DNA of 64,000 bases from Acidimicrobiales bacterium (lineage in GTDB: Bacteria > Actinomycetota > Acidimicrobiia > Acidimicrobiales > CADCTF01), in NCBI GenBank assembly GCA_035540495.1, contig DATLGL010000047.1, positions 30,383 to 94,382 of the forward strand, given 5' to 3'. Within the stretch, counting starts at the first letter, position 1. The number at the start of each line of letters is the position of its first letter. Positions 45,993 through 46,856 of this stretch are shown here, in pieces. Both the position numbers and the translations under genes were made by a program. Below the pieces are notes generated by a model, which was given only the letters and a program-made list of their open reading frames with translations, was not told the DNA's origin and ran no database searches.

Positions 45993-46856
45993 TCAGCCGG
46001 CCGCGGCTTCGTCGATGACGGTGTCGCAGAGCGCGAGGCAGTCGTTGCAGATGCGAGCCCGAGCGCCCTTCACCATGCGGTCGACGCTCGGTGTCCGGAG
46101 GCCGCAGAACGAGCACGGGTGCTGCTCGCGTATCGCCGGAAGGAGCCCGACGCGGCGGGGCCCGGAGGTGGCTTCCCCGGTCGATGCCACCTCCTGAGCC
46201 GCCGCCACGCAGGACCCGCAGATGTAGACGCCGGGTCCTGCGACCAACTTCTCGACCTGTGCCTGGCTCGCGTTGCAGAACGAGCACCGCATGACCGGCG
46301 AGCGCCGGCGCATCACCGTTCGCTTCGCCTCCGCGGCCTCCGCCGGTGGATCGATGATCCGTTCGCAGGTCCGCACGCACTCGGCGCAGATGAGCGCACC
46401 GTTCCTCTCGAAGGCCGACTCCGTCGCCTGGCGGCAGAAGTCGCACTCCGCGAGATCGACCGGCGACAGTTCGCCGGCTGCCCGCTCGACGCAAGCGTCG
46501 CAGATGAACGAGCGGCCCGGCGCGGCCAGCAACTTCTCGACCTTGCGGCGGGGTGTTCCGCAGAAGGAGCACGCGTCTTCCGCTGCGGTGACGGACACCG
46601 ATGCGTTCGGATGCGGAGTGACGTCGGTCGACGTCGCCTCGACCTCGACGATGGCGTCTTCGCCGATGATCTGGTGCACGCGCTGGTGGCTCATGCCCAA
46701 CGCGTTCGCGATCTCGCGCATCGACGCGCCGCCGGTGTGGAGCCGGCGGATCGCTTGATGGAACTCGGCCCTCGCGTCGAACACCGCCGTCTCGAGGAGC
46801 TCGAGCTTCTGCCGGGCGGCCTCGACATCGCGCACGAGGTCGTCGTCGAGTGCCAC
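45993..46856 (-). CDS. HTH protein with four tandem ClpX-type C4 zinc fingers
   Basis: N-terminal '[19 protein letters not shown]' HTH. Four CxxC-x(15-19)-CxxC modules, e.g. '[27 protein letters not shown]', which closely resembles the ClpX N-domain 'CSFCGK...KLIAGP.VYICDECV'. Confidence 0.75.
   Translation of the reverse strand: [287 protein letters not shown]

Follow-up and report, generated by a model that had tools for sequence, protein, structure and literature searches.

A protein with a helix-turn-helix module and four ClpX-type zinc fingers

The 64-kb stretch of Acidimicrobiales contig DATLGL010000047.1 analysed here (the window) encodes, on the minus strand at 45993..46856, a 287-amino acid (aa) protein in which an N-terminal helix-turn-helix (HTH) module is followed by four ClpX-type zinc-binding domains (ZBDs). 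The coding sequence opens with GTG, and a longer N-terminus is excluded, because an in-frame TAG lies five codons 5' of this start. A first-pass annotation, made from the letters alone, had described a stand-alone protein of this composition, and the open reading frame (ORF), the Pfam matches and the AlphaFold2 (AF2) model all agree with that description. The protein terminates 14 aa past finger 4. The NCBIfam ClpX equivalogs score only 82 and 67 bits, far under their cutoffs of 359 and 371, with matches confined to the fingers, and the protein therefore lacks an AAA+ module. Pfam likewise found no Clp_N domain in the window protein; Clp_N was seen only in paralogous relatives. We also considered an identity as McsA and rejected it, since the protein reaches just 6.1 bits (E 8.3) with NCBIfam NF053706, whose cutoff is 210.

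Scored against the whole protein, the Pfam profile zf-C4_ClpX (PF06689) matches four stretches with 133.7 bits (E 1.9e-39), and the expectation of four profile hits was thus borne out. Each finger was also scored as an isolated segment, with the PF06689 gathering cutoff at 27 bits. Finger 1 (aa 96-122; 46491..46571, on the minus strand like the other three) reaches 50.1 bits, finger 2 (aa 138-160; 46377..46445) 19.2 bits, finger 3 (aa 191-216; 46209..46286) 58.1 bits and finger 4 (aa 248-273; 46038..46115) 44.1 bits, compared with ~79 bits for the genuine ClpX ZBDs of Mycobacterium tuberculosis and Escherichia coli. Finger 2 on its own is degenerate, since its score lies below the cutoff; despite this low Pfam score, its homology to the second fingers of related two-ZBD proteins is clear (hhalign probability 98%). 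The third module, previously singled out as very close to the ClpX N-domain consensus, has the highest score and matches the solved ClpX ZBDs (PDB 6sfw, 2ds5, 1ovx) with E ~1e-7. It retains the CSFC...KL...C pattern and a ClpX-type loop, in which P208 aligns with the proline of the ClpX AGPG loop, and both G207 and P208 are invariant in an alignment of 46 homologues. Finger 4 keeps the ClpX-like C..CL.LC..I helix. Across the same 46 homologues, every one of the 16 cysteines (Cys) that form the CxxC...CxxC ligand sets is invariant.

Comparison with the two-ZBD relatives divides the fingers into two types. Fingers 1 and 3 resemble the first finger of these relatives (hhalign scores 85.7 and 114, respectively) and are here called a-type, whereas fingers 2 and 4 resemble the second finger (59 and 101.6) and are called b-type. 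The array is thus a tandem duplication of an a-b pair, of which the C-terminal pair (fingers 3 and 4) is the conservative copy. In a-type fingers, the ClpX surface loop is almost unchanged across phyla.

The N-terminal module and the predicted domain organization

An AF2 model built on the 46 homologues (mean predicted local distance difference test, pLDDT, of 88) contains three ordered blocks: the HTH module, fingers 1 and 2, and fingers 3 and 4. The linkers inside the finger pairs are modelled with a pLDDT of 89-98, while those between the HTH and finger 1 and between fingers 2 and 3 fall below 50 and are disordered; the finger pair is therefore the structural unit of the array. One finger of the model, unspecified as to which, superposes on the E. 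coli ZBD 2ds6 with a root-mean-square deviation of 0.5 Å over 35 residues and a TM score of 0.83 (Foldseek).

The N-terminal module (aa 1-67; 46656..46856, minus strand) is modelled with pLDDT >90 as a long helix (residues 5-41) followed by the HTH (helices 46-53 and 57-64), with SHQRVHQI as the putative recognition helix. Within the family, conservation is highest in the HTH segment: R37, L39, G43, S45, R47-A50, L53 and S56-V60 are invariant in the N-terminal alignment, and the alignment of four-ZBD proteins gives the same columns, save that I49 and V60 are nearly invariant there. All Pfam HTH matches are sub-threshold (E 1e-4 to 1e-3), namely HTH_Tnp_ISL3 (21.8 bits, cutoff 27.4), HTH_58 (21.7 bits, cutoff 23.8) and Sigma70_r4 (19.2 bits, cutoff 24.1). 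A PHROG annotated as 'HTH DNA binding protein' matches the module with E 8.6e-9, and Foldseek finds a resemblance to HTHs of the LuxR, DeoR and RcsB types.

PDB entry 8vd6, a solved 'CAP repeat' with five 33-aa copies, was considered as a clue to function and set aside: it consists of tandem short HTH-like repeats, the other top matches are designed helical-repeat proteins, and such similarities are functionally uninformative. Tandem arrays of an HTH unit like the N-terminal module also occur in the proteins P0205 (836 aa, 10 matched stretches), P0237 and P0210.

An operator-like palindrome covers the putative promoter

The palindrome that the first-pass annotation had pointed to beside the gene is real. 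It is a perfect inverted repeat, GTCTAG-GGAA-CTAGAC (GTCTAGGGAACTAGAC; 46859..46874), which ends 2 nucleotides (nt) before the GTG; sites of the type GTCTAG-N4-CTAGAC occur once in the 64-kb window against 0.01 expected. Upstream of it on the minus strand lies a -35 element, CTTGACA (46886..46892), whose TTGACA is 29 nt from the start codon, and 6 nt further upstream is an auxiliary half-site, GTCTAG (46898..46903, minus strand), which is 22 nt from the -10 of the divergently transcribed flavoprotein gene.

This arrangement is common to all ten four-finger loci compared: GTCTAG, 6 nt, CTTGACA, 14-19 nt, GTCTA(C/G)-N4/5-CT(A/G)GAC and the start codon. CTTGAC is invariant in 10/10 of these loci; GTCTA of the auxiliary half-site is equally invariant, and its sixth base nearly so. 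The distance from the -35 element to the start codon is 29-33 nt, too short to accommodate a leader or Shine-Dalgarno sequence; the mRNA is therefore leaderless, and the palindrome lies over the -10/+1 region. Scans for consensus promoters and terminators found nothing in the scanned DNA; for the gene's own promoter the promoter scan is blind, because the -10 is non-canonical. A search for Rfam families found no match. In one pair of loci (L005, positions 4065-4237, and the equivalent L007), a ~90-nt insertion with a long perfect hairpin (CTCTGCGGCGCCGCC...GGCGGCGCCGCAGAG) separates the flavoprotein start from the finger-gene promoter and leaves the promoter and operator block intact.

The palindrome is retained far beyond the four-finger proteins. 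Among the 74 loci long enough for this comparison, 64 have GTCTA-N6/7-TAGAC within their promoter region, where 0.003 would be expected from the flanks, and most of the ten others have offset or variant copies. In 55 of the 64, the operator and the start codon are 0-3 nt apart, and many loci have extra half-sites or a second palindrome upstream. It is kept from Acidimicrobiales to Lentzea, Streptosporangiaceae, Vicinamibacterales, Dormibacterota and Obscuribacterales. Relatives with Clp_N as the sole C-terminal domain show the operator and the layout in three of four loci (L090, L092, L094), and the fourth (L093) has only a degenerate copy; two hybrids with both Clp_N and two fingers (L087, L088) have the operator plus the layout of half-site, -35 element and palindrome. 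The operator is thus present whichever C-terminal domain the protein carries, which indicates that it follows the N-terminal HTH and that the C-terminal domains are interchangeable. As judged from these sequence comparisons, autoregulatory DNA binding by the predicted repressor is well supported and, in our estimation, highly probable. The earlier suggestion that the protein is a transcription factor is thereby strongly supported; the zinc or redox sensing that went with it is weighed below. Locus L053 has a further perfect operator (GTCTAGTTACAGTAGAC; 1618), 2.4 kb upstream of its family gene and beside a second, shorter family member, which suggests local paralogy.

Fusion partners and distribution of the family

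The protein collection contains one identical protein and ~95 full-length homologues with 41-66% identity. Where named, these are called 'ClpX C4-type zinc finger protein' or 'hypothetical', and they come from Acidimicrobiales or Actinomycetota metagenome-assembled genomes (MAGs). In GTDB representative genomes, the four-finger form is likewise found in Acidimicrobiales/Actinomycetota MAGs only (L007-L015). The architectures that share the N-terminal module comprise two fingers (~185 aa, the commonest form), one finger, Clp_N alone, and Clp_N plus two fingers. Among cultivated organisms, two-finger proteins occur in Lentzea, Saccharopolyspora, Acrocarpospora and Planotetraspora; among MAGs, they occur in many from Streptosporangiaceae and in a few from Dormibacterota, Vulcanimicrobiota, Vicinamibacterales and Obscuribacterales. 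The Clp_N domain is of the ClpC type; that of hybrid P0113, for example, matches the ClpC1 N-terminal domain (NTD) from M. tuberculosis with E 1e-37.

To survey the fusion partners of the HTH, residues 1-72 were searched exhaustively with phmmer against 1.84 billion representatives, which returned at least 545 clusters, and the top 150 were annotated for domains. Among these 150, 61 contain zf-C4_ClpX and 36 contain a ClpC-type Clp_N, sometimes together; the 25 most frequent Pfam families are otherwise all HTH models, and the remaining members are short. The only recurrent partners of this DNA-binding module are therefore the N-terminal docking domains of two Clp unfoldases.

Viral matches are single-finger or HTH-only proteins in phages, with one HTH-only match in IMG/VR, and PADLOC gave no defence-system match for the window protein. 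The four-finger family is essentially absent from viral contigs and is not a known defence component. Our literature searches found no publication on HTH-ZBD proteins. Papers on extracytoplasmic function (ECF) and cyanobacterial sigma factors that name ClpX or zf-C4_ClpX concern the degradation of sigma AntA by ClpXP or lists of accessory domains, and were discarded as irrelevant.

Genomic neighbourhood

The divergent neighbour (46941..48308, plus strand) encodes a 455-aa FAD/NAD(P)H oxidoreductase of the LpdA type (NCBIfam NF005883, 450 bits, cutoff 479), similar to Rv3303c. The finger gene is divergent from such a flavoprotein gene in every four-ZBD locus that extends far enough, and the flavoprotein is not found among the neighbours of two-ZBD relatives. 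Since the auxiliary half-site lies 12-22 nt from a conserved TAnnnT, the -10 of the flavoprotein gene, co-regulation is conceivable; the flavoprotein is a possible co-regulated target whose membership in the system is uncertain. The flavoprotein gene of the window seems to be leaderless too (46926-46941, with TAGGGT 9 nt before the ATG). Most examined four-finger loci have TAnnnT ~6-10 nt before the flavoprotein start, and L013 has a longer leader.

Downstream, the finger gene of four-finger loci is convergent with a methylmalonyl-CoA mutase gene, sometimes with a CHASE3-HAMP-SpoIIE gene between the two. Such a convergent CHASE3-HAMP sensor gene is present in L003 (6928-8487), L005 (5127-6590), L007, L008 and L010, and likewise in the Lentzea loci L063, L073, L074, L079, L080 and L083-L085, that is, in two distant lineages. 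The sensor region is fused to a SpoIIE phosphatase in Acidimicrobiales and to a histidine kinase in Lentzea, where a receiver-SpoIIE gene stands alongside. The 64-kb window itself contains no CHASE3-HAMP sensor gene. Between the mutase and the finger gene it has a 383-aa ORF (44826-45977, plus strand) with an Ala/Thr-rich N-terminal region, for which Pfam-derived annotations, NCBIfam and PADLOC gave no match; the other four-finger loci have either no gene or the CHASE3-HAMP-SpoIIE gene at this place.

No universal partner emerged among the neighbours of two-ZBD relatives, whose recurrent neighbours are lineage-specific: an acyltransferase and a metallo-beta-lactamase (MBL) hydrolase in Lentzea, an esterase in Streptosporangiaceae and pntAB in Actinophytocola. 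Such variability is what would be expected of a self-contained one-gene module. In the Actinophytocola loci (L019, L023, L033, L026), the two-finger gene is divergent from a pntAA-pntAB-pntB transhydrogenase operon. Both this operon and the flavoprotein bear on NAD(P)H balance; this could hint at co-regulation related to redox state or be coincidental. No sigma factor gene is adjacent to the finger gene in the window or in the four-ZBD loci.

A possible sensor and sponge for ligands of the ClpX N-domain

The first-pass annotation knew of no characterised example of such a protein. For ZBD proteins this agrees with our literature searches, but it overlooks a close characterised analogue, ClpC2 (Rv2667) of mycobacteria and other Actinomycetota, in which an N-terminal dimerisation domain is joined to a cyclomarin A-binding domain similar to the ClpC1 NTD (Taylor et al, 2023; PMC10030653). 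ClpC2 represses its own gene from an operator, CGTCAAC-N5-GTTGACG, 1-2 nt upstream of the ORF; this operator is often repeated upstream and overlaps the -35/-10 region of a leaderless transcript, and ligand binding frees the DNA, after which the induced protein acts as a sponge (PMC10030653). According to a 2026 preprint, phosphoarginine and ClpC1-directed antibiotics break up ClpC2 oligomers and relieve repression (PMC13345244).

By analogy, we propose that the window protein may be an autorepressor built on the ClpC2 plan, with an array of ClpX-type fingers in place of the ClpC1-type domain as sensor and sponge, a reading to which we assign a probability of roughly 0.4. The long N-terminal helix would dimerise the protein and the HTH would bind GTCTAG-N4-CTAGAC over its own -10/+1 region, the extra half-site just upstream of the -35 element being available to it as well; that the HTH reads the palindrome of its own promoter is strongly backed by the comparative evidence. 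The two rigid a-b pairs would mimic the N-domain with which ClpX docks substrates and adaptors. A ligand of that N-domain, such as a degron-bearing protein, an adaptor, or a natural product or toxin directed at the ZBD, could then bind the array and alter the oligomerisation or DNA affinity of the repressor. The promoter would be derepressed, and the accumulating protein would both report the ligand and act as a sponge for it. These last steps, from ligand sensing to the sponge, we infer by analogy, and the notion of a ClpX N-domain mimic is drawn from the fusion pattern together with the ClpC2 precedent. The divergent flavoprotein is perhaps co-regulated through the shared intergenic region, although the model does not need it. 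From our own alignment with M. tuberculosis ClpX, we take P30 of that protein to lie in the AGPG loop and to correspond to the invariant P208 of finger 3 and the nearly invariant P113 of finger 1. A P30H substitution on the hydrophobic ZBD surface of ClpX confers high-level ilamycin resistance in mycobacteria (PMC12350849), which makes ZBD-directed ligands plausible.

Several points weigh against this proposal. The ligand, the DNA binding and the oligomeric state of the family are all inferred. Much of the array may have lost the ClpX-like surface, since finger 2 is degenerate and, together with fingers 1 and 4, scores 19-50 bits against ~79 for ClpX itself. The window has no linked gene for clpX, clpP or an adaptor, the four fingers being its only matches to clpX, and the strictly conserved divergent flavoprotein of the four-ZBD clade would suit a redox regulon equally well. 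The parallel with ClpC2 is itself imperfect: the N-terminal module shares only ~19% identity with the ClpC2 NTD (hhalign probability over the helix and HTH 35% in one comparison and 55%, with E 1e-4 over 36 columns, in another), the structure of that domain (8ADA) was neither returned by a profile search of PDB sequences with the N-terminal module nor among the top 50 Foldseek matches listed, and the resemblance may be convergent. Moreover, Taylor et al place the DNA contacts of ClpC2 in its Clp_N domain rather than in the N-terminal domain (PMC10030653).

The same protein can be read as an ordinary autoregulated transcription factor whose ZBD pairs are zinc-stabilised oligomerisation modules that lack any functional tie to ClpX and to the ligands of ClpX. 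Constitutive dimerisation of the ZBD in ClpX (PDB 1ovx, 2ds5), the multiple operator half-sites, which suggest a higher-order assembly, and the marked divergence of fingers 2 and 4 from ClpX would all fit. Dimerisation alone, however, hardly accounts for partners that are exclusively N-domains of Clp unfoldases, including hybrids with both, or for the near-constancy of the ClpX surface loop in a-type fingers of different phyla, and the long N-terminal helix already supplies a dimer interface; we regard this explanation as unlikely. The redox sensing put forward in the first-pass annotation would make the protein a thiol/zinc switch: oxidation of the four Cys4-Zn sites would set zinc free and unfold the fingers, and the repressor would leave the operator in the shared intergenic region, so that the protein itself and the LpdA-type flavoprotein, an NAD(P)H-quinone oxidoreductase, would be induced under oxidative or quinone stress. 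Rv3303c LpdA has been linked to oxidative-stress defence in M. tuberculosis, and a flavoprotein of this type is divergent in every examined four-ZBD locus, down to 41% identity, with the auxiliary half-site close to its -10 as described above; the Actinophytocola gene faces another enzyme of NAD(P)H balance, and 16 zinc-ligand cysteines are invariant. Yet the neighbourhood in these MAGs is wholly syntenic (biotin ligase, carboxylase, M20 peptidase, phosphoesterase, mutase, ThiF, nitroreductase, SIR2), and the flavoprotein adjacency may thus simply be inherited gene order. In relatives, the same layout of half-site, -35 element and palindrome also stands beside unrelated upstream genes, such as those for a tRNA synthetase and an amino-acid permease. 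Moreover, the ZAS-type H-x3-C-x2-C motif was not found in the protein sequence, and the fusion of the same HTH to a cysteine-free Clp_N domain is left unexplained. Such a redox switch strikes us as unlikely, but it is still a live rival.

A further alternative concerns ClpXP directly. A role as decoy or anti-adaptor had been suggested for the protein, and the decoy part gains indirect but specific support from fusions restricted to ZBD and Clp_N domains and from a promoter logic shared with ClpC2. In the anti-adaptor version, the fingers would heterodimerise with the ZBDs of ClpX, either blocking docking or tethering the protein for its own degradation, in step with ClpXP capacity. ZBDs do dimerise, a-type fingers are near those of ClpX (58-71 against 79 bits), and autoregulation would yield homeostatic control. 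On the other side, the genes are not linked to clpX or clpP, AF2 pairs the fingers within the chain and leaves little free dimer interface, and the ClpC2 precedent is one of competition for ligands, not of binding to ClpC1. Direct modulation of ClpXP is thus quite improbable in our view.

Extending the sensor-sponge proposal, we tentatively consider, with the odds against it, a more general surveillance scheme in Actinobacteria and their neighbours. An autorepressing HTH would there be fused to the N-domain of each Clp unfoldase (ClpC-type, ClpX-type or both), and the ZBD forms would constitute the missing ClpX arm.

Implications

Mycobacteria depend on both ClpC1 and ClpX, which count as validated or emerging targets of antibiotics. 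ClpC2 set the precedent that bacteria can shield ClpC1 by inducing a copy of the domain with which it binds ligands, and a ClpX-type equivalent has not been reported; if our proposal is correct, this principle of defence and sensing would be general. It would also predict natural ligands or antibiotics aimed at the ClpX ZBD, which fits the ilamycin-resistance mutation P30H in that domain. Under the broader surveillance scheme, ZBD proteins would, on induction, sense and soak up ilamycin/rufomycin-type antibiotics or endogenous degron or adaptor signals, and a genome that encodes them would point to an organism exposed to compounds that target ClpX. They could further serve as affinity reagents for such compounds and for new actinobacterial ClpX adaptors. 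We know of no actinobacterial ClpX adaptor, and the defined operator together with cultivable two-finger hosts (Lentzea, Saccharopolyspora) would offer a handle for adaptor discovery. Since cultivable actinomycetes carry the two-finger form, the proposal is directly testable, and it should be of interest to researchers working on Clp proteases and on antibiotics.

Comparison with known systems

The individual fingers have the same Cys4 fold as the ClpX ZBD (PF06689; PDB 1ovx, 2ds5-2ds8). Unlike those of ClpX, they are not attached to an AAA+ unfoldase, number four per chain, are specialised into a- and b-types and are fused to an HTH. Phages and phage-plasmids (PHROGs 6797, 12435 and 5259; D6- and P1-like) also encode fingers without AAA+, in the form of stand-alone ZBD proteins that, in contrast to the window protein, have a single finger and no fused HTH of this type. 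Proteins annotated as stand-alone 'ClpX C4-type zinc finger' are found, for example, in phages D6 and P88 and in Bacillus phage G (gp258), and in H16-H28 (~90-kb plasmids of E. coli and Salmonella) a small ClpX-finger gene adjoins a gene for a 'DNA-binding protein'. Such stand-alone finger proteins might be phage tools aimed at the ClpX of the host.

If the array competes for ZBD ligands, the outcome would be similar in concept to that of the ClpXP anti-adaptors and adaptor mimics IraD, IraM, IraP and SspB. These share neither sequence nor fold kinship with the window protein, and they target RssB or ClpX rather than DNA. Zinc-thiolate switches such as the RsrA/ZAS anti-sigma factors and Hsp33 also contain Cys-ligated zinc, which oxidation could in principle release from the present fingers as well; unlike these proteins, the window protein has no HxxxCxxC motif and no partner sigma gene, and its fold is that of the ClpX ZBD.

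The closest parallel is ClpC2. Both are small stand-alone proteins that join an N-terminal helical dimerisation or HTH-like domain to a copy of a Clp N-domain without AAA+, and in both systems a palindrome, often duplicated, lies just 5' of the ORF over a leaderless -10/-35 region; moreover, relatives sharing the HTH of the window protein carry Clp_N itself. They differ in the sensor domain, which is a set of four ClpX-type zinc ribbons here and a ClpC1-type Clp_N in ClpC2, and in the operator, GTCTAG-N4/5-CTAGAC as opposed to CGTCAAC-N5-GTTGACG. Membership in the ClpC2 family was considered but is not claimed: because the evidence for homology between the N-terminal domains is weak and 8ADA was absent from the profile-search results and from the Foldseek matches listed, we describe the protein as working like ClpC2 and not as a member of its family. 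Two further observations concern the ClpC2 NTD. The fragment in 8ADA (Rv2667 residues 1-72) ends with ...SWSDIGKSMGV, immediately before an apparent HTH recognition helix (TKQAAQKRF), and the domain matches the RelI antitoxin (9sdc) with E 4e-6. Finally, the comparative data suggest that in the window family the N-terminal HTH reads the operator, which bears on how ClpC2 binds DNA: since the operator tracks this HTH, the ClpC2 NTD may aid DNA recognition beyond what the published model describes.

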